64,000 bases of DNA. It comes from Escherichia phage mogra. Below, piece by piece: positions 39,836-57,889 of the stretch. Under the pieces are notes generated by a model. That model did not search any database, was not told the origin of the DNA, and saw only the letters and a program-made list of their open reading frames with translations. How positions within the stretch are numbered: position 1 is the first letter of the stretch; each line of letters opens with the position of its first letter. The stretch is from the sequence record MN850579.1, one strand, 5' to 3'. The position numbers and the translations under genes are program-made.

Positions 39836-40471
39836 ATGAAAACTACACCAATCACTATCGCTATTGACGCAATTGTAAAACAAGCTTCATCTCTTGCCAC
39901 TATGGCTAAAGTAATTAGTCAAAACCATGCTCGTTATAATGCTATTCTAGAAACTCTTCGACGCCCTGGACTTAGTAATTATGAAAGCCGGGTAATTATT
40001 ACAGGTGTTGGTAAGAATGCTAATATCGCAACTAAAGCTTCCGAGACTTTTGCTTCACTAGGTATTCCTAGCATGTATTTGAATACCGGGCATTATTCTC
40101 ATGGTGACGCAGGATTTATTGCACCTAATGATGTATTAGTTCACATCAGTCGTTCTGGTAAGACTGAAGAAATGATAGGTGTTGCTAAACATCTTCGTAT
40201 GATTCGTCCTCAGGTTAAACAGATTCTGTTACATTGTAACCCTGACATTCCACAAGAATACGAAGCTCTTTTTGATTATACGTTCTGTACCGGTATCGCG
40301 GTAGAAGTTGACGAGAACTCTTTAGCTCCGACAATGTCTACTACATTGTTGTTAGCGCTTATCGATACGTTCGCTATCAACCTTTCGTCTGAACGTGGAT
40401 TTACCTCTAATGATTTCCTTAAGTTCCATCCAGGCGGTGCACTAGGTGCCATGTTACGAGGCGAACAATGA
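39836..40471 (+). CDS. SIS-domain sugar-phosphate isomerase, arabinose-5-phosphate isomerase (KpsF/GutQ)-like
   Basis: ITGVGKNANIATKASETFASLG, HISRSGKTEE, LAPTMSTT and HPGGALG match recalled KpsF/GutQ SIS signatures; no CBS domains. Confidence 0.78.
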   Translation: MKTTPITIAIDAIVKQASSLATMAKVISQNHARYNAILETLRRPGLSNYESRVIITGVGKNANIATKASETFASLGIPSMYLNTGHYSHGDAGFIAPNDVLVHISRSGKTEEMIGVAKHLRMIRPQVKQILLHCNPDIPQEYEALFDYTFCTGIAVEVDENSLAPTMSTTLLLALIDTFAINLSSERGFTSNDFLKFHPGGALGAMLRGEQ

Positions 40472-40611
40472 AAGCAATAACAATAGGACTTTTACTATTG
40501 ATGCTTGCCATGACTATCTACTGGAGCTTAACGGCTCCGGTAATGATTCCAACACTTGTAATTGGATGGATTATGATTGGACTACAAGCAAAGTATGAAT
40601 GCTTTAACTAG
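40468..40611 (+). CDS. 47-aa two-helix membrane peptide
   Basis: ATG 40468 overlaps upstream stop (ATGA); MKAITIGLLLLMLAMTIYW...PTLVIGWIMIGL; not in track. Confidence 0.45.
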   Translation: MKAITIGLLLLMLAMTIYWSLTAPVMIPTLVIGWIMIGLQAKYECFN

Positions 40612-40652
40612 AATAGTGTACAATACTCCTACTTACCAATGAGGACTTCAAC

Positions 40653-42338
40653 ATGAAAAAAGCTGTTATTCTTGGTGCTGGACTGGCAACTCGTTTGTAT
40701 CCAATAACGCATCATATTCCTAAGGTGCTTGTGAACTATAAACAAGACACTATTCTGAGCAATTTGTATACAATTTATTCTGACCTTGGCGCAGATGAAA
40801 TTATTGTAGTAGTTCATTCAAAATTTGCTGAAACTGTTCGAGCTTATTGTGAGCAAGAAGGGTTCAATGTGACTATTCGTACAGTTGATGAAGCGTATGG
40901 TTCTGCTTATGCTCTTGCTAAATTACACAAAGATTTAGACGGTCATAATGTAATTGTTAACTGGTGCGATATTATTCCTGATTTTGGTTCATGGTCTTGG
41001 AATGTTAACGCAATCTATGTTAAGGGTGATGAATGTCGATATAATTTCGACGGTGAAAATATCACTAACGTAGGTTCAACAGGTGGTAATGTTGTAGGAA
41101 TTTATCAGTTCAAAGACTGGGAATTCTATATGGGTTCTACTGATGAGGAAATTCATGAATACTGCAAAGGACGTGATTTCGTAGAATTCCTTTACAGCGC
41201 CGCATTCAATAAATCAGAGCTTATGAATCTAATTGATTTAGGTGATATGCCTAAACTTGAAAAGGCTCATGAAGTTCGTGAACTTAATCGTAGTTTTAAC
41301 GCAGTTGAAATTGGTGAAGAAACTGTAACTAAATTCGCATTAACCGAACAGGGTCGAGCTCTTCAGAAAGATGAGATTTCATGGTATTTGAAAGTGAAAT
41401 CAGATTCAGTTCCTCAGTTAGTTTCTGTTAATGAAAATAACTTTGAAATGGAACGCATTAAAGGTAAGCCAGCATTTGAATATATTAAATCCAAATCAAG
41501 TCTTGCTCGTCCACAAATTGTTGATGCAATTTTAGATGCACTGAAATTCAGCACAGACACTTATTTTGTAAGTCCTGAAACTGTTCGTCGTGATTTCACT
41601 AAAGAATTCTATACGAAAGTTATTGATCGTTGTGAAAGCATTCAACCATTGATTGATTCATTTGGTAAAATCACGCATGTGAACTACACTAAGATTGGAC
41701 GTCTGAAGCCAATGCTGAAACAAGCTTTAGAACACCTTATTCGTTATCATAACCGTTCTCAGGGACAGTACTCTGTTATTCATGGCGACCCGAACTTCAG
41801 TAATACTATGATTACTGATAATGGCGAAGTCAAGTTTATCGACCCTCGTGGATATTTTGGTGAAACCAAGATTTACGGGCCGAAATTGTACGACGAAGCT
41901 AAAGTGCTTTACGCTGTTTCAGGTTATGATGAATTCAACGCTAATCCGACCTGGGGGCAGTTTACTATTGATGAAACAACTTGTAATGTGACTATTAACA
42001 TCAATCCATTAGTTTACAAATATGGAAAGATGAGTTCGTTTAACGAGTATCATCATTTGGCAGTGGCAATTATCTGGATTGCATTAGGTGGTTATTTCAA
42101 GAATAATCCACTTAAAGCGGTAGCCGCATATTATAAAGGTATGGAACTTCTGACTAAGCAATTACGTAACATGGGCCGTGTACTTCAGGACGGCTCTATT
42201 AGTTATGACGTAGCAGAACCTGTAACGGCTACTCTGATTACAAAAAATCCTGGTAAGTGGGTACTAACTGATAAAGAAACTGGTGTTTCCTATCGTCCAA
42301 TAGGTGGCGATATCACTCATCAATGGGAACGAATCTAA
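40653..42338 (+). CDS. bifunctional sugar-1-phosphate nucleotidyltransferase / APH-fold sugar kinase
   Basis: N-terminal LGAGLATRLYP...PK (GxGxR NTP-transferase motif); C-terminal VIHGDPNFSNTMITDNGEVKFIDPRG (kinase catalytic and metal loops); 561 aa. Confidence 0.72.
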   Translation: MKKAVILGAGLATRLYPITHHIPKVLVNYKQDTILSNLYTIYSDLGADEIIVVVHSKFAETVRAYCEQEGFNVTIRTVDEAYGSAYALAKLHKDLDGHNVIVNWCDIIPDFGSWSWNVNAIYVKGDECRYNFDGENITNVGSTGGNVVGIYQFKDWEFYMGSTDEEIHEYCKGRDFVEFLYSAAFNKSELMNLIDLGDMPKLEKAHEVRELNRSFNAVEIGEETVTKFALTEQGRALQKDEISWYLKVKSDSVPQLVSVNENNFEMERIKGKPAFEYIKSKSSLARPQIVDAILDALKFSTDTYFVSPETVRRDFTKEFYTKVIDRCESIQPLIDSFGKITHVNYTKIGRLKPMLKQALEHLIRYHNRSQGQYSVIHGDPNFSNTMITDNGEVKFIDPRGYFGETKIYGPKLYDEAKVLYAVSGYDEFNANPTWGQFTIDETTCNVTININPLVYKYGKMSSFNEYHHLAVAIIWIALGGYFKNNPLKAVAAYYKGMELLTKQLRNMGRVLQDGSISYDVAEPVTATLITKNPGKWVLTDKETGVSYRPIGGDITHQWERI

Positions 42339-42724
42339 TGCACCGCGTAGAAAACATGCTTAATCTTTGTTTTGATGTCGATGATTGTATAACAGAGTGG
42401 AATAACAATCGTGATTACGTGAACTTCAAGCCAGACGTCGAAATGGTGTCTGCCATTAATGCCCTGTATGATGCAGGGCATACCATAACGCTTTACACTG
42501 CTCGCGGTATGAAGTCAGTCGGTCCTGGTCGTATAGCAATTGACATTCTCCCAAGTCTGATTCAGAACTTGGCAAACATTGGCTTGAAGTACCATAATTT
42601 GCTAACACATAAACCAGTATATGATTGGATTATCGACGACAAAGCTATGCGTCCTGACGAATTCAAAGCTCTTATGAATAAAGGCGAATTCGAAACATTT
42701 AAATCATATAAACCGAATCTATAA
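42338..42724 (+). CDS. HAD-superfamily phosphatase
   Basis: Motif I CFDVDDCIT, Thr/Arg motif LYTARG, C-terminal DD (WIIDDKA); ATG 42338 overlaps upstream stop (TAATG). Confidence 0.6.
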   Translation: MHRVENMLNLCFDVDDCITEWNNNRDYVNFKPDVEMVSAINALYDAGHTITLYTARGMKSVGPGRIAIDILPSLIQNLANIGLKYHNLLTHKPVYDWIIDDKAMRPDEFKALMNKGEFETFKSYKPNL

Positions 42725-42784: not shown

Positions 42785-43945
42785 ATGAATACTTTTAAAA
42801 TCGGAACGAATTTTGATTTAGCTCTTCTTGATAAAATCGTAGAGCTCAATAAAACTTATCCTAATAGCTTGATAAATGAAGTATACGGCTCTACAAGAGA
42901 AATGGCTTTTGTAGCAGCCAGACCTGATTTTAGGCTTCCTGACATTGACAAAAAGATGTTAGAAGATTATGTTAAACGTTGTAACGAATTAGGTATTTGC
43001 TTTAACTATACACTCAACACGATAAATCCTGGTTCAAAAAGAGAACTAGTTGAGTGGAAGAAGAAAGCTATTCAGGATTATGTTCAGTATCTTTGGTCAA
43101 TAGGCGTATGGCGTATTACTATCGCTAACCCTGTTGTTATGGAAATTGTTCGTGAAGTCAATAAAGACATTGAGATTGAAGTTTCAACAATTCTACATGT
43201 CGATGCTGTAACTCAAATCAAATACTTGCATGACCAGTATAATATCAAAAAGGTCTGCTGTGGAATTCATAAGAACCGTTCAGTTTCTTTCCTGAAGCGT
43301 GCAGCAGAGTTTTGCAATAAGAACAATATAATATTTGAAGTTCTTGTAAATGAGTTCTGTTCTAATGCTGGTAAAGGGTATACAACACATTGTAGCTATC
43401 GTGACTCTTGCTATATTTTCCATAGTACTGATGTTACAGCTGATGATGCTAAATCCTTAAACGGATATCCAATGCAGCACTGTATTAAAGCTCGTGATAC
43501 AGACCCATTTAACTGGTTGAGAACTCGTTTTGTTCGTCCTCAAGATTTGAAACTTTATAATGATATCGGTATCACTCAATTCAAAGTTTCAGGACGTACA
43601 GGTAGCACAGACTACATTTTGAAAGTTCTTGAAGCATACGCTTCTGAAAAGTTTGAAGGTAATTTGTTAGAACTGTGGAAGCCTTTAGAGACTATTTTCA
43701 CTCTTGAAAACGAAACTGAGTTTTCACATACAGTAAATATTGAAACCTCTTTGTTAGATGGCTTTTTAGAAAAAAGGTGGTTCAGACATCCAGATTTCGA
43801 TTGTGCTAATGAAATCTGCGGGACGACGTGTACATATTGTGAAAGATATTATAAACGTCAATTATCTAAAAACGGGTTAGCAGAAAACTCTATATCTATT
43901 ATTGATATAACTAACTCTGATGACGCTTTGAGGTACCCGGAATGA
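42785..43945 (+). CDS. peptidase-U32-family protein (family includes O2-independent hydroxylases)
   Basis: Block pattern FNYTLNT...ITIANPVV...EIEVST...VLVNEFC...G...HCSYRDSC parallels recalled U32 TIM-barrel signature; second cluster CANEICGTTCTYC. Confidence 0.5.
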   Translation: MNTFKIGTNFDLALLDKIVELNKTYPNSLINEVYGSTREMAFVAARPDFRLPDIDKKMLEDYVKRCNELGICFNYTLNTINPGSKRELVEWKKKAIQDYVQYLWSIGVWRITIANPVVMEIVREVNKDIEIEVSTILHVDAVTQIKYLHDQYNIKKVCCGIHKNRSVSFLKRAAEFCNKNNIIFEVLVNEFCSNAGKGYTTHCSYRDSCYIFHSTDVTADDAKSLNGYPMQHCIKARDTDPFNWLRTRFVRPQDLKLYNDIGITQFKVSGRTGSTDYILKVLEAYASEKFEGNLLELWKPLETIFTLENETEFSHTVNIETSLLDGFLEKRWFRHPDFDCANEICGTTCTYCERYYKRQLSKNGLAENSISIIDITNSDDALRYPE

Positions 43946-44181
43946 TTTCTAGAAAAACTTTTAACCACCGACTTAATGAAGAGATTTTGACTATGAAACT
44001 GAACACTAATGAACAAATTCTTAAAAAGGCCCTGATGGGCCTGTTTGAAACTAAAGCGGCTAAAGTGATTAAAGAACCTGTTCAATTGGAATACTACGCT
44101 GATGCATTTCTTCATAGTGTTCTTGGAAGTATCGATGCTGAATCTTTACGTTATATCAACATTGTCAAGAAATTCAAATAA
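43942..44181 (+). CDS. hypothetical small protein
   Basis: ATGA overlap with U32-like gene; 79 aa; no motif. Confidence 0.45.
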   Translation: MISRKTFNHRLNEEILTMKLNTNEQILKKALMGLFETKAAKVIKEPVQLEYYADAFLHSVLGSIDAESLRYINIVKKFK

Positions 44182-44223: not shown

Positions 44224-44940
44224 ATGGGAAAACATAACACAATGAAATATATCAAAGCCGCAGATTTTCAAACCGCATTTAAAGCAGTCAATCGTGAAAT
44301 TTTAGAAAACCCGGAATTCGTAACTGATTCTCGTATTGGACGTTGTAATGAAATTGGGTCTATGACAGTAGTTGTTGACACTCCATCATCATTCAAAATG
44401 ACCGACCCACGTATTAACCGCATCTCTTATGAATATGCCGAAGACTTCTGGAAGTTTATGATTTCCGGTGGTACCAACGCAGAAGAAGCGTTTAAGGCAT
44501 ATCCTAATGTCGCTAAATTTATTTCTAAACCAAAATCAGATGTTTTGCCGGCGAACTTCAACACTTTCTATGGTCCTCGCATTGCGGCCCAATTACCAGC
44601 TCTTCTAAAAGAACTTAAAGAGAAGCCTAACTCTCGAAGAGTTGTGTTCCAAATTCTAGAAAGTTCTGATCAGGCTTTGCTTGATTCGGACGAAACGCTT
44701 GAATATCCATGTACTGACTCAGTGACTTATTATATTCGTGATGGTAAGCTTTATACCCACTGTCATATGCGTTCTCAGAACTGTGCTGTTGTTATGCAGT
44801 TGGATTTTTATCTCCAAGGAAAATTACTTCATTATATCGCTAACGAATGTGGTGTAGAAGTTGGTGATTATACTCATACCATGGTAAGTGCCCATGTGTT
44901 TGAACGTGATTTTGATTATGTTAAAGGATTCCTTGACTAA
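44224..44940 (+). CDS. thymidylate-synthase-fold pyrimidine C5 enzyme, dCMP hydroxymethylase-like, divergent
   Basis: PNSRR phosphate loop; catalytic Pro-Cys (YPCTD); MRSQN...QLDFY with Asp at the ThyA Asn177-equivalent position; EVGDY...H. Confidence 0.78.
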   Translation: MGKHNTMKYIKAADFQTAFKAVNREILENPEFVTDSRIGRCNEIGSMTVVVDTPSSFKMTDPRINRISYEYAEDFWKFMISGGTNAEEAFKAYPNVAKFISKPKSDVLPANFNTFYGPRIAAQLPALLKELKEKPNSRRVVFQILESSDQALLDSDETLEYPCTDSVTYYIRDGKLYTHCHMRSQNCAVVMQLDFYLQGKLLHYIANECGVEVGDYTHTMVSAHVFERDFDYVKGFLD

Positions 44941-45839
44941 TGGCTATTTTCCGCGTACCAATCTTGAGTATGCGGTCTTATGAAACTGGACAGTATGCTA
45001 TCCTTAAGGATGGCAACTTCCAACTTCATTTGCACCGTGCTAATCCAGGCGATGTGATTACATATCCACGTAATGCATCTGATATTAAAGAATGTGAACG
45101 TCTTTTCCCAGAATTTAAGTTTGTTCCATTATGGTATAAAGATAACGCGTATAACACTCGTAAATATTTCTGGTCCGAAAATGAATTTGTGGTTGATTCA
45201 TTAATTGCTTATTATGATTGTGATTTTCTAATCACAGATATCACTGGATATAACGGCGCTTTTGATGTAGAATTCAATTTCAATATCACGGCAGACCCTA
45301 ATAAACCACGTTTTTATATTGGCGAATTCTTAAAAACCGATATGTTGTCAGTTAATAGTTCACTTCAAACTACTGTGTTGAATGAACGTCAAAAAGAAGT
45401 GCTGGTTAACGCAGGTGCAGATGGTAATAAGATTATCGTAACTCAGAAAGTTATACGTCCTTCCATCATGCAGCGTCTTGTAGGTGATTTGGCTCCTATT
45501 CATCTAGATGGTATTTTTCATCCATTTCGAATTAGTGACCCGTGCTATCGTTTTGAACAAGTGGTTGAATGTGCAATTCAATTAGGCCAACCGCTTTATA
45601 TAACCGATCCAAATAATAGCTTCGACAGAAATAAGTATCCTGAAGAAGCGCTGATTCGAATTTTTAAACCAACTAAAACTGAGTACTATCAAATTCTTAA
45701 AGGACGTCCGAAGATTCAATATTTCGAAAATCCTGAAGAAGTATTTCATCCAGGTCTTGGTGAGTTCATCTACTTTAATGCTTTAATTTCTTCGCCGTAT
45801 AATATACCTAAATACGAAGATGTCGTAATCGAGGAATAA
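44940..45839 (+). CDS. hypothetical protein (299 aa), candidate DNA sugar transferase
   Basis: TAATG-coupled to the TS-fold gene; no recognisable motif; function inferred from context only. Confidence 0.5.
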   Translation: MAIFRVPILSMRSYETGQYAILKDGNFQLHLHRANPGDVITYPRNASDIKECERLFPEFKFVPLWYKDNAYNTRKYFWSENEFVVDSLIAYYDCDFLITDITGYNGAFDVEFNFNITADPNKPRFYIGEFLKTDMLSVNSSLQTTVLNERQKEVLVNAGADGNKIIVTQKVIRPSIMQRLVGDLAPIHLDGIFHPFRISDPCYRFEQVVECAIQLGQPLYITDPNNSFDRNKYPEEALIRIFKPTKTEYYQILKGRPKIQYFENPEEVFHPGLGEFIYFNALISSPYNIPKYEDVVIEE

Positions 45840-45840
45840 A

Positions 45841-46389
45841 ATGGCTAAAATTATTTTAGTAGATGGCCCGGATAATGCCGGTAAAACAACTTTCATTAAT
45901 GACATAATGGAAATTAGTGAAAGATATGTAAAGATTGATTTCCCTAAACGAACAGTTGATGGACGTTTCGATGTTAAGTCTCGAAATGAAGTTGGTTGTT
46001 TCGAAACGATGTTGAATTATTTAGACCCTACTAAGATTTATCTGTTAGACCGTGGATATATTAGTAACTGGGTTTATGGACGTATTCGACAAGATGCGGA
46101 CTCTGTTCTTGATGTTTATGAGCAGGATTATGTTCGTCTTTGCCAAAACCATGATGTGTTCACAATTATTTTAACACGTAACGAAATGACTGAAAGTTTT
46201 GAAGACGACCTTATTACTTTGTCTTCATTCGGTTTTAATACAGTCATTTCACATTTTGAAGAGTTTGCAATTCATAACAAAATCCAAACGTATCAATTAC
46301 TTAATCATGATGGTGCTAACAAAGTTATAGGATTTAATGCAAGCGAACGTAATGGTTTGATTACAGAAATCATCAAATGGGCTCGTTAA
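45841..46389 (+). CDS. P-loop nucleotide kinase (thymidylate-kinase-like)
   Basis: P-loop VDGPDNAGKTT; DRGY motif (LLDRGYISNWVYGR) reminiscent of Tmk DRY/DRH; 182 aa. Confidence 0.62.
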   Translation: MAKIILVDGPDNAGKTTFINDIMEISERYVKIDFPKRTVDGRFDVKSRNEVGCFETMLNYLDPTKIYLLDRGYISNWVYGRIRQDADSVLDVYEQDYVRLCQNHDVFTIILTRNEMTESFEDDLITLSSFGFNTVISHFEEFAIHNKIQTYQLLNHDGANKVIGFNASERNGLITEIIKWAR

Positions 46390-54168: not shown

Positions 54169-54257
54169 AATATCTCCTTAGTTACCTATTATTTATTACG
54201 CTTTATAAAATTAATGGTAGAATTAAACTCTCTTATACTGAATTGAAAGGAAAAATA

Positions 54258-54779
54258 ATGGCGCACTTTAATGAATGTTCACAACTTATTTCTGGTGTTG
54301 ATAAAGCAGAAGAAGCTTATTTTAATGCTCTGATTCACGAAGATAAAGACCCACTTCAGGTAATGCTTGATATGCAGAAATCTTTACAGGTTCGTCTGGC
54401 AAATGACAAGCCTGAACATAACAAACATCCTGATGAATTGGCTACTGCTGGTGATGTTGTTGATTGGCTGCGTAATCAGAAAGATTATATTGATGATGAA
54501 TTCCGTGAACTGTTGACTTCACTTGGTGGTATGAGCAATGGTGAAAAAGCCGCCAGCAGTGTATGGAAGCCTTGGAAAGCACAACATGCTGAATATCGAA
54601 ATCGTCGTATCGATGAACTGTCTCCTGAAGACCAGCTTGAAATTAAATTTGAGATGATTGATATTCTTCATTTCGTTCTGAATATGTTCCAGGGTCTTGG
54701 TCTTACAGCAGAAGAAATCTTTAAACTTTACTACTTGAAAAACCAACACAACTTTGAACGCCAGGATAATGGTTACTGA
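54258..54779 (+). CDS. 56: dCTP pyrophosphatase gp56 (MazG-like)
   Basis: ATG 54258 after AGGA; all-alpha MazG-like NTP-PPase; position between 61 and soc; 173 aa. Confidence 0.8.
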   Translation: MAHFNECSQLISGVDKAEEAYFNALIHEDKDPLQVMLDMQKSLQVRLANDKPEHNKHPDELATAGDVVDWLRNQKDYIDDEFRELLTSLGGMSNGEKAASSVWKPWKAQHAEYRNRRIDELSPEDQLEIKFEMIDILHFVLNMFQGLGLTAEEIFKLYYLKNQHNFERQDNGY

Positions 54780-56641: not shown

Positions 56642-57223
56642 ATGACATGTCAATCTGAACTTCAAGAACGTGAATACCTAACAAATCTGATTGATAGCAA
56701 ATTCACCCACCAAGAACAAAACATTCTCTGGGCTTGCACCGATTCTAAGGAAGACCCGGATTTCCATTATGAATTAGACCATCTTGTTCGTAAGCATATG
56801 ACTTCTACAGTACCAGTAGAACTCTACCGTGGTGTAACTCCAGAAGAAGTAGAACGTCTTTCCCTTCTTTCTGTTGGATGCCATTGGTCTCCTGGACGAG
56901 TAACATCGTTCACAGCTGATTTCAGTACAGCTCGTCAATTCTCTGGGAGATGGGAATATCAGACGTACACTATTCTTAGTCTCAGGAATGCTCCGTTCAT
57001 TTTTGATTACTACCAAAACATGGTTAACATTGTACTCGCCGGAAAGAACCCTAAGCATGTTATGGAAGAAACGCGTGTTGACGTCCTAGATATGATTGAA
57101 TCTGAACAAGAGTACATGGTCTCAGGTATCTCTAGATTTGAGATTGTGGAAATTGAAGACTTAGAATATGACCCTTTATCTCGGTTATACAAAATCATTC
57201 ATTTGAAAATGTTGAATTTTTAG
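56642..57223 (+). CDS. Mod-family ADP-ribosyltransferase (modB position)
   Basis: R-S-E ART signature: LYRGV, FTADFSTARQF, ESEQEYMVSG; 193 aa; paralog of next gene. Confidence 0.72.
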   Translation: MTCQSELQEREYLTNLIDSKFTHQEQNILWACTDSKEDPDFHYELDHLVRKHMTSTVPVELYRGVTPEEVERLSLLSVGCHWSPGRVTSFTADFSTARQFSGRWEYQTYTILSLRNAPFIFDYYQNMVNIVLAGKNPKHVMEETRVDVLDMIESEQEYMVSGISRFEIVEIEDLEYDPLSRLYKIIHLKMLNF

Positions 57224-57280: not shown

Positions 57281-57889
57281 ATGTTTATGCCGTATAACGA
57301 GTGTGAAATTGAAGAAATGGTTCGACGTGCTCAATGCCCGGATTATCAATATATGCTTCAGTACAAAATCGATGAGCAATTCAGCGACATTGAACAAAGT
57401 GTACTGTGGCAGTGTATGGAAAACAAGCCTGATAGCATCCAACAAGATTTAAGTGCAATTGTTCGTAGAAATTGGTCTTCTTCAGTTCCTGAGACAATGT
57501 ATCGTGGAATCTCTAAGAAAACTATGGCTACACTCGATGATAAAAGCATTGGTAGTATTATTAAATTTGACAGAGTAATGAGCTTTAGTCCGGTGTTTGG
57601 TGTAGCACGTAACTTCGCTTCATATAATTTTTATGGAACATTTAATATGTTCTGCATCAAAGATGCACCATTTGCTTTCAACTTCCGTGAACATATGCTT
57701 AACATGATTCTGGCTGCGCCATCTTGTGAGTTCAATGGAGCTTTCCCTGAAGCGACAAGACGGTCTAATGCTAGACTTATATCTGACGAATGTGAATTTA
57801 TGCTCCCTATAGGGACTACACTGCGTGTAGATTCTATTATTCAAGATGGACGTTATACAATCTGGAATCTGTCTATTGTCAGTTACTGA
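57281..57889 (+). CDS. Mod-family ADP-ribosyltransferase (modA position)
   Basis: R-S-E ART signature: MYRGI, MSFSPVFGVARNF, SDECEFMLP; 202 aa. Confidence 0.72.
   Translation: MFMPYNECEIEEMVRRAQCPDYQYMLQYKIDEQFSDIEQSVLWQCMENKPDSIQQDLSAIVRRNWSSSVPETMYRGISKKTMATLDDKSIGSIIKFDRVMSFSPVFGVARNFASYNFYGTFNMFCIKDAPFAFNFREHMLNMILAAPSCEFNGAFPEATRRSNARLISDECEFMLPIGTTLRVDSIIQDGRYTIWNLSIVSY

Follow-up and report, generated by a model that had tools for sequence, protein, structure and literature searches.

Why does a phage of Escherichia carry its own genes for a sugar-phosphate isomerase, a fused nucleotidyltransferase and kinase, and a small phosphatase? Three such genes lie in a row at positions 39,836 to 42,724 of a stretch of 64,000 nt from Escherichia phage mogra (sequence record MN850579.1). 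The whole stretch that was analyzed is called the window in the following. An earlier note on this DNA had proposed that the three gene products supply an activated pentose as donor for DNA glycosylation. Our analysis leads to a more specific answer. We consider it highly probable that the three open reading frames (ORFs) form the supply line for uridine diphosphate (UDP)-D-arabinofuranose (UDP-Araf) in an RB69-like Mosigvirus, which arabinosylates 5-hydroxycytosine in its DNA. This study itself observed which genes are present, their domain families, active-site residues, and synteny, and the fusion of all four activities in single proteins of other viruses; the identities of the substrates, the order of the steps, UDP as carrier, and 5-hydroxycytosine as acceptor were taken from the literature. 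The module is already published (2018–2026), and the present genome adds only a further isolate.

Identity of the Phage and Conservation of the Gene Block

The window region contains the T4-type replication genes gp45, gp44, gp62, regA, and gp43, and we take its DNA polymerase to be the RB69 enzyme. Judged by its sequence, the source of the window is an RB69-like Mosigvirus of the T-even type. A 6.8-kb query over the three genes matched 151 complete phage records with 98–98.5% nucleotide identity, and all of these were Escherichia or Shigella phages of the RB69-like Mosigvirus type. The top matches showed 98.5% identity, and no searched record reached 99% over the full length. The genes are the same as in the known Mosigvirus module (RB69 gp55, gp52:53, and gp51; AfhE and AfhF of phage HY126) and stand in the same order between gp43 and uvsX, with only strain-level differences between the window and the sequenced Mosigviruses.

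The annotation of phage Bas46 (ChristianSchoenbein) agrees gene for gene with the window block. There, the isomerase gene is labeled [quoted passage not shown], the fusion "putative enzyme involved in UDP-arabinose biosynthesis", and the phosphatase "putative phosphatase". The block was still recognizable at 37% identity in marine T4-like contigs. All three ORFs were found intact on the plus strand at the positions given before, and the motifs quoted in the earlier note for the isomerase and the kinase domain are present. The family matches of the SIS protein, the N-terminus of the fusion, and the HAD protein, given below, are much stronger than chance would produce.

A Single-Domain Isomerase of the Arabinose-5-Phosphate Type

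The first gene encodes a SIS protein with the motifs GVGKN (residues 57–61), SRSGKTEE (105–112), LAPTMSTT (163–170), and HPGGALG (198–204). It matched Pfam SIS with 38.9 bits (cut-off 25) and PHROG 5670 with an E-value of 2.6e-116. Among the NCBIfam models, it matched KpsF/GutQ (8.5e-32) and KdsD (2.8e-30), in each case with the SIS half of the model only. The nearest relatives in the PDB were the single-domain arabinose-5-phosphate isomerases 3etn (1e-24), 5uqi (2.6e-22), and 2xhz (2e-18). In an alignment with KdsD of E. coli and five phage homologs, K59, H88, E111, E152, and H193 of KdsD corresponded to K60, H89, E112, E157, and H198 of the phage protein, and all five were invariant. These are the residues reported for the active site of KdsD in the work on 2xhz. 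The family scores, these five residues, and the single-domain relatives in the PDB support the proposal that the gene encodes an arabinose-5-phosphate isomerase.

KdsD, GutQ, and KpsF have the SIS fold and the catalytic residues in common with the phage protein, and the reaction is probably alike. They carry tandem CBS domains, whereas the phage protein has none; its last residue, 211, follows immediately on the SIS domain. Its score with TIGR00393 was 110.8 bits, below the KpsF/GutQ full-length cut-off of 203.7, and the match covered profile positions 2–153 of 268. Due to the lack of CBS domains and the score below this cut-off, we place the phage protein with the single-domain subgroup, represented by c3406 of E. 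coli (5uqi) and the Bacteroides fragilis protein (3etn).

A Fused Nucleotidyltransferase and Probable Kinase

The second gene encodes a fusion of two enzymatic domains. The N-terminus matched Pfam NTP_transferase (PF00483) with 39.1 bits (cut-off 21.2). A GxGxR motif had been quoted for this domain. The nucleotidyltransferase signature is indeed present, but not in this exact form, since it reads G8-A-G10-L-A-T-R14, that is GLGTR with Ala for the second Gly. G10, R14, and K24 were invariant in 28 homologs. When the single sequence of the N-terminus was compared to the PDB, the best match was LicC (1jyk, 2e-05). The profile made from 28 fusion sequences favored the HddC-like heptose-1-phosphate guanylyltransferase (6jq8/5xhw, 1.4e-13) over LicC (1.6e-11).

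The match to LicC, and also the name "choline kinase" that the Joint Genome Institute (JGI) gave to some fusion homologs, would fit a LicA/LicC-like protein, in which a kinase for choline or another non-sugar substrate is joined to a cytidylyltransferase. We hold this to be extremely improbable in view of the preference of the family profile for the heptose-1-phosphate enzyme. Furthermore, homologs of the fusion are, in many lineages, joined to a SIS sugar-phosphate isomerase or have one as neighbor, and the activity published for the AfhE-type fusion, as relayed in Lee 2026, concerns arabinose phosphates.

In the C-terminal domain, we found the kinase motifs HGDPNFSN (377–384) and FID (395–397), with H377, G, D379, N384, and D397 invariant in the 28 homologs. 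PHROG 21938 spans residues 211–517 of the fusion, and PF01636 is recorded for several of its homologs. The top Pfam kinase match of the domain was under the cut-off (17.8 bits), and the PDB profile matches were marginal (RIO2, E ~0.07). Published fold searches with the fusion resulted in APH(2'') and a glucosamine kinase for the kinase half and in MurU for the nucleotidyltransferase half (PMC13326640). The earlier description of the N-terminus as a nucleotidyltransferase was borne out by family and motif. In the C-terminus, described as a kinase of the APH/choline-kinase fold, the catalytic motifs are present, but the fold is weakly supported by sequence and rests mainly on these published structure comparisons.

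A small-molecule kinase is likewise paired with a nucleotidyltransferase in AmgK/MurU, LicA/LicC, and Fkp-type enzymes, and the N-terminal domain of the fusion has MurU and LicC as neighbors by structure or sequence. The substrates of these enzymes are free sugars or choline, and the kinase of Fkp is of the GHMP type. Unlike AmgK or LicA, the kinase of the phage fusion has a sugar 5-phosphate as its published substrate, as far as Lee 2026 reports it. The comparison with salvage enzymes, which the earlier note had drawn and of which Fkp is an example, thus applies to the domain architecture but not to the order of the reactions.

A glycosyltransferase function of the fusion was considered and then dropped by Thomas 2018 (PMC6024577), and for the homolog TH1_060 of phage Thanatos (54%) such a role is still suggested in the literature. 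The domain families found here (NTP_transferase and the profile of the heptose-1-phosphate nucleotidyltransferases) give no support to this function.

The Small Phosphatase and the Order of the Steps

The third ORF overlaps the end of the fusion ORF by 16 nt and encodes a small HAD protein, in which D18-V-D20 represents the Asp pair of motif I. In the PDB, it matched 9iqw (7.8e-88), to which it is 100% identical over residues 5–133, and 1xpj (5e-10). The entry code 9iqw adjoins 9iqc, 9ir2, and 9iqu, the close relatives of a neighboring gene product described below, and from this we infer that all four are depositions of HY126 proteins. The score with TIGR01689 (EcbF/BcbF capsule phosphatase) was 49.3 bits (4.3e-13) at a trusted cut-off of 162, and the sequence thus assigns the protein to the HAD superfamily, but not to the family at the equivalog level. 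A weak signal for HAD-IIIA (GmhB-type) was also seen.

For HY126, the work of He 2026, as reported by Lee 2026 (PMC13326640), gives the order ribulose 5-phosphate, arabinose-5-phosphate, arabinose-1,5-bisphosphate, arabinose-1-phosphate, UDP-Araf. According to this report, the kinase domain of AfhE phosphorylates arabinose-5-phosphate at C1 in vitro, the Mg-dependent phosphatase AfhF takes the 5-phosphate off arabinose-1,5-bisphosphate, and the N-terminal domain of AfhE is the pyrophosphorylase that makes UDP-Araf. In mogra, the SIS isomerase would accordingly convert ribulose 5-phosphate to D-arabinose-5-phosphate, and the kinase domain of the fusion would add a phosphate at C1. The HAD phosphatase would then strip the 5-phosphate from the bisphosphate, and the N-terminal nucleotidyltransferase would join arabinose-1-phosphate and uridine triphosphate (UTP) to UDP-Araf.

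This scheme resembles the nucleotide-heptose pathways (GmhA, HldE/HddA, GmhB, HldC/HddC), which also comprise a SIS isomerase and a kinase step at C1 of a sugar phosphate, followed by removal of the distal phosphate by a HAD enzyme before a nucleotidyltransferase acts. Kinase and nucleotidyltransferase are likewise fused in HldE, and the best solved relative of the phage nucleotidyltransferase domain is a HddC-like enzyme. The phage pathway differs by its pentose substrate and by a HAD enzyme of the small EcbF/BcbF type. In addition, the heptose kinases are PfkB or GHMP proteins, whereas the phage kinase is APH/protein-kinase-like. By this analogy, the phage pathway works like the nucleotide-heptose route, without being a member of it.

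A different order had been assumed in the earlier note. In this salvage route, the HAD protein frees D-arabinose from arabinose-5-phosphate, the kinase adds a phosphate to this sugar at its anomeric carbon, and the nucleotidyltransferase forms a nucleoside diphosphate (NDP)-arabinose. APH-fold anomeric kinases paired with nucleotidyltransferases, as AmgK/MurU and NahK, use free sugars. MurU and a glucosamine kinase are among the structural neighbors reported for the fusion, and Table 1 of Lee 2026 still prints the order via free arabinose, an older annotation (PMC13326640). The text of the same paper contradicts this order by the in vitro results on AfhE and AfhF of HY126, as far as they are given there. 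The set of genes parallels that for heptose activation, the nearest solved relative of the nucleotidyltransferase is a heptose-1-phosphate guanylyltransferase, and the weak HAD-IIIA signal of the HAD protein also counts against release of the free sugar. We therefore regard the route via free arabinose as unlikely and prefer the route via arabinose-1,5-bisphosphate.

DNA as the Probable Destination of the Sugar

UDP-Araf would be consumed by the glycosyltransferase encoded further downstream in the window and by a second glycosyltransferase encoded outside of the window, which would result in arabinosylated 5-hydroxycytosine. The required 5-hydroxy-deoxycytidine monophosphate (5-hydroxy-dCMP) would be supplied by the thymidylate-synthase-like enzyme of the same region. 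Arabinose on the DNA of RB69 was reported by Thomas 2018, where ORF055c and ORF53_52c were suggested to be the genes for UDP-arabinose (PMC6024577). According to Lee 2026, the base is arabinosylated 5-hydroxycytosine, not hydroxymethylcytosine (PMC13326640). Arabinosyl-5-hydroxydeoxycytidine was measured in virion DNA of RB69, DLP3, and Mosigvirus NP.

Since isomerases of the KdsD type normally feed the synthesis of 3-deoxy-D-manno-octulosonate (Kdo), the sugar genes could also serve the chemistry of the host envelope (Kdo, capsule, or lipopolysaccharide precursors) or a general takeover of the host. The family matched by the HAD protein is labeled "capsule biosynthesis phosphatase", and entry 9iqw bears the name "capsule biosynthesis protein"; both would be in agreement with this. 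The arabinose measured on the DNA of RB69 (PMC6024577) and NP argues against such a role, and no Kdo-8-phosphate synthase was found in the T4-like clusters. We consider a function outside of DNA modification very unlikely. The gene functions, an NDP-pentose as end product, and its use as donor for DNA glycosylation, as the earlier note had proposed them, agree with our tests and with the literature, by which the NDP-pentose is specifically UDP-D-arabinofuranose.

Some points weigh against this assignment. The order of the steps and the specificity for UDP reach this analysis second-hand, via Lee 2026, and Table 1 of that paper differs from its text as described above. From the Pfam and PDB profile searches, sequence gives the kinase fold only weak support. 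Purified TH1_060 of Thanatos showed no detectable pyrophosphorylase activity with xylose-1-phosphate in vitro. In Marfavirus P545 (L018), the fusion and the HAD protein are present, but no SIS gene was found in the cluster. This last case suggests that the phage isomerase is dispensable where KdsD/GutQ of the host suffices, and the Klebsiella phage P545 presumably relies on these host enzymes.

The Sugar Genes in Other Viruses

The SIS, fusion, HAD, glycosyltransferase, nucleotide kinase, and thymidylate-synthase-like (ThyA-like) genes were found together in Acinetobacter, marine, Serratia, Yersinia, and Kanagawavirus (Klebsiella) phages. The fusion protein was present in 376 phage records, including 57 Acinetobacter phages. 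No SIS match was seen in the cluster of Dhakavirus MN04 (L021), which also lacks a chorismate mutase gene and a gene for the U32-family protein discussed below.

Among the homologs of the fusion are four-domain proteins of about 900–955 amino acids with the order HAD-SIS-nucleotidyltransferase-kinase (P0084, P0088, P0089, P0091, and P0092). In one of them, P0084 (L002:8001-10781), the SIS part shared 32% identity with the phage isomerase (E 1e-28), and the HAD part falls into another HAD subfamily than the phage phosphatase. P0084 is encoded on a giant-virus-like contig together with a MutS-HNH gene and RNA polymerase subunits, and giant viruses may therefore also make an NDP-arabinose. P0091 stems from a Ceratiomyxa transcriptome.

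Neighboring Genes

The features of the region are listed in Table 1. The ThyA-like protein matched Pfam Thymidylat_synt and was 98% identical to 9iqc, 9ir2, and 9iqu in the PDB. Lee 2026 describes the ThyA homolog as an O2- and flavin-dependent 5-hydroxy-dCMP synthase, which takes the oxygen from O2, and also assigns RB69 gp46:47 as the first arabinosyltransferase (PMC13326640). A PDB sequence search with the corresponding glycosyltransferase of the window gave no matches. The window ORFs that were scanned did not include a second arabinosyltransferase (RB69 gp3 type).

Table 1. Position of genes and domains in the window and of related genes on other contigs (Ru5P, ribulose 5-phosphate; aa, amino acids).
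Feature	Position	Strand	Remarks
Single-domain SIS arabinose-5-phosphate isomerase, RB69 gp55 ortholog (predicted Ru5P <-> D-arabinose-5-phosphate)	39836..40471	+	211 aa
Small hydrophobic two-helix protein, 47 aa	40468..40611	+	Intact ORF between isomerase and fusion genes
Fusion protein, 561 aa, RB69 ORF53_52c / HY126 AfhE type	40653..42338	+	
N-terminal sugar-1-phosphate nucleotidyltransferase domain (arabinose-1-phosphate + UTP -> UDP-Araf, activity from literature)	40653..41270	+	
C-terminal APH/protein-kinase-like kinase domain (arabinose-5-phosphate -> arabinose-1,5-bisphosphate, fold and activity from literature)	41283..42338	+	
Small cap-less HAD phosphatase, RB69 gp51 / AfhF type (predicted arabinose-1,5-bisphosphate -> arabinose-1-phosphate)	42323..42724	+	133 aa
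U32-family, putative Fe-S protein, RB69 gp50, next gene after HAD	42785..43945	+	PF01136
Helical ORF of 79 aa, companion of the U32 gene	43942..44181	+	No Pfam match
Thymidylate-synthase-like, flavin- and O2-dependent 5-hydroxy-dCMP synthase, RB69 gp48 (function from literature)	44224..44940	+	
Putative first DNA arabinosyltransferase, RB69 gp46:47	44940..45839	+	PHROG 3891, 1.5e-154; synteny kept in every cluster examined; assignment from literature
Thymidylate-kinase-like nucleotide kinase, RB69 gp45	45841..46389	+	PHROG 761; Table 1 of Lee 2026 (PMC13326640)
gp56-type dCTP pyrophosphatase, supplying dCMP for hydroxylation, RB69p028	54243..54779	+	PHROG 173, 1.7e-45; Table 1 of Lee 2026 (PMC13326640)
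Chorismate mutase genes	L008:6155-6394, L017:6321-6665, L018:6495-6740, L019:6450-6743		
DAHP-synthase/chorismate-mutase fusion or DAHP synthase alone beside U32	L051:4321-5376, L048:4411-5433, L052:4332-5387, L049:9-971, L037:7080-7826		

The small hydrophobic ORF between the isomerase and fusion genes was absent from the earlier note. At the same position, proteins of about 60% identity are encoded in Kanagawavirus, Winklervirus, and Tegunavirus, and the annotation there reads "transmembrane protein". One would not expect a membrane peptide inside a cytosolic sugar-nucleotide operon. Tandem paralogous ORFs at 56642-57223 and 57281-57889 of the window match the family of RNA-polymerase ADP-ribosyltransferases (ModA/ModB type), which is ordinary for T-even phages.

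A Protein of the U32 Family as a Candidate Hydroxylase

The gene next to the HAD phosphatase encodes a U32-family protein with a Pfam Peptidase_U32 match of 42.2 bits (7.3e-11, cut-off 22.4). In sequence records, gp50 is labeled "peptidase", and Lee 2026 lists it as "sugar or heterocycle reductase" without discussion (PMC13326640). We tentatively propose that the protein is a prephenate-dependent, O2-independent pyrimidine C5 hydroxylase, which we regard as possible, though somewhat less likely than not. Members of the U32 family have been implicated in hydroxylations that need no O2 and take the oxygen from prephenate, and RlhA, one of four U32 proteins of E. coli compared here, is the 23S rRNA 5-hydroxycytidine synthase.

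A PDB sequence search with the U32 protein gave no matches. The AlphaFold2 (AF2) model showed a predicted local distance difference test (pLDDT) value of 91, and its top solved match was 5d88, the only U32 structure, with a target-normalized TM-score of 0.70. Ten Cys residues were invariant in 31 homologs, among them C192, C203, C209, and C233 and those of a C-terminal CX4CX3CX2C motif (C340/C345/C349/C352). When the family profile was aligned by hhalign to the four E. coli U32 proteins, RlhA was the best match (E 8e-6, probability 84%, 204 columns), and the alignments to TrhP, UbiU, and UbiV were weaker. As to possible ligands of a 4Fe-4S cluster, C203 and C209 aligned with signature Cys residues of RlhA; the other two Cys of RlhA aligned with no Cys. 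The phage protein shares the U32 family and the TIM-barrel fold with RlhA, TrhP, and UbiU/UbiV and also has conserved Cys residues. It differs from them as a distant, virus-encoded relative with an extra C-terminal four-Cys motif and a presumed deoxynucleotide or DNA substrate.

In the proposed scheme, the ThyA-like hydroxylase, which depends on O2 and flavin, could not work in anoxia, and the U32 protein would be the oxygen-independent alternative fed by prephenate. With it, phages of enterobacteria could produce DNA with 5-hydroxycytosine even in the gut, where oxygen is lacking. As a parallel to the pair of ThyA-like and U32 proteins, we suggest the aerobic and anaerobic ribonucleotide reductases that T-even phages carry.

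Of the phage records, 221 contained homologs of the U32 protein, each with an identity of 80% or more. The hosts are Escherichia, Klebsiella, Shigella, Serratia, Proteus, Yersinia, Enterobacter, Providencia, Edwardsiella, and Shewanella. In some of the U32-bearing phages, the fusion was only 43–66% identical (Marfavirus P545, Tegunavirus fHe-Yen9-01). U32 was absent from the clusters of Acinetobacter phage Maestro, Dhakavirus MN04, and the marine phages examined, and the lack of U32 in some coliphages, as in the MN04 cluster, is a caveat to our proposal.

Kanagawa-, Winkler-, Marfa-, and Tegunaviruses carry a genuine type II chorismate mutase gene (Pfam 1.3e-9) between the U32 and ThyA-like genes, and chorismate mutase followed U32 in 48 phage records. 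No chorismate mutase was detected in the window (best hmmsearch E-value 0.037), so that this Mosigvirus has none of its own, a further caveat to the hydroxylase proposal.

In the window, the U32 gene is followed by the ORF for a 79-amino-acid protein. Homologs of this ORF outside Mosigvirus also stand directly after U32, and in Tegunavirus-type loci they are located upstream of a separate chorismate mutase gene. The AF2 model was of low confidence (pLDDT 59.6). We rejected the idea of a diverged chorismate mutase, since no similarity was seen by BLASTP or hhalign and no Pfam match at E = 10, and since TG1 and its relatives as well as another T4-like viral contig carry both the homolog and a genuine chorismate mutase. 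From its sequence context, the protein could be a partner of the U32 protein.

A scan of IMG/VR resulted in 47 U32 loci, 32 of which were not T4-like. In the non-T4 loci, U32 was accompanied by homologs of the SIS and fusion genes and by genes for a GT1-like glycosyltransferase, a thymidylate-kinase-like protein, and a HAD protein. [quoted passage not shown] The DAHP_synth_1 neighbors were rejected as Kdo-8-phosphate synthases that use arabinose-5-phosphate, as the DAHP synthase models scored 163–221 bits versus 53–67 for KDO8PS. A scan for the ThyA-like hydroxylase, which relied on short peptide patterns, found 53 contigs; their overlap with the U32 set consisted of only the 15 T4-like ones, and by this pattern scan the hydroxylase was undetected in the non-T4 U32 contigs.

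In large phage contigs, U32 homologs stand beside genes for dCMP deaminase, thymidylate kinase, and a DnaE-type polymerase, and one U32 homolog shares its contig with a gene for a dockerin-bearing glycoside hydrolase. On two of the DnaE-type large phage contigs (L009:8175-8939 and L012:8089-8832), U32 is followed by a gene for a protein of about 250 amino acids, 44% identical between the contigs. This protein has faint similarity to epimerases/dehydratases and is encoded near genes for dCMP deaminase, uracil-DNA glycosylase (UDG), and thymidylate kinase.

Three configurations could be distinguished. Among the clusters examined, those of Acinetobacter phages, marine phages, and Dhakavirus have the ThyA-like gene without U32. 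Both genes, with or without chorismate mutase, occur in the T4-like phages of enterobacteria and Shewanella. Uncultivated non-T4 phages have U32 with DAHP synthase and/or chorismate mutase, together with the arabinose-activation and glycosyltransferase genes, and no ThyA-like gene was detected in them. A literature search for a link of phage U32, chorismate mutase, or prephenate to 5-hydroxycytosine revealed nothing relevant, and the U32 lead is potentially new.

Biological Significance

UDP-D-arabinofuranose is a nucleotide sugar that the enterobacterial host does not make. The arabinose on the phage DNA shields against restriction and CRISPR nucleases. If the U32 proposal is true, the U32 protein would be the first DNA-directed member of the prephenate-dependent hydroxylation chemistry, and the reason for the presence of chorismate mutase and DAHP synthase genes in phages would be explained. 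It would also explain how the DNA of gut phages stays fully modified under anoxia, which would be of relevance for phage therapy and for the design of phages that evade host defense.

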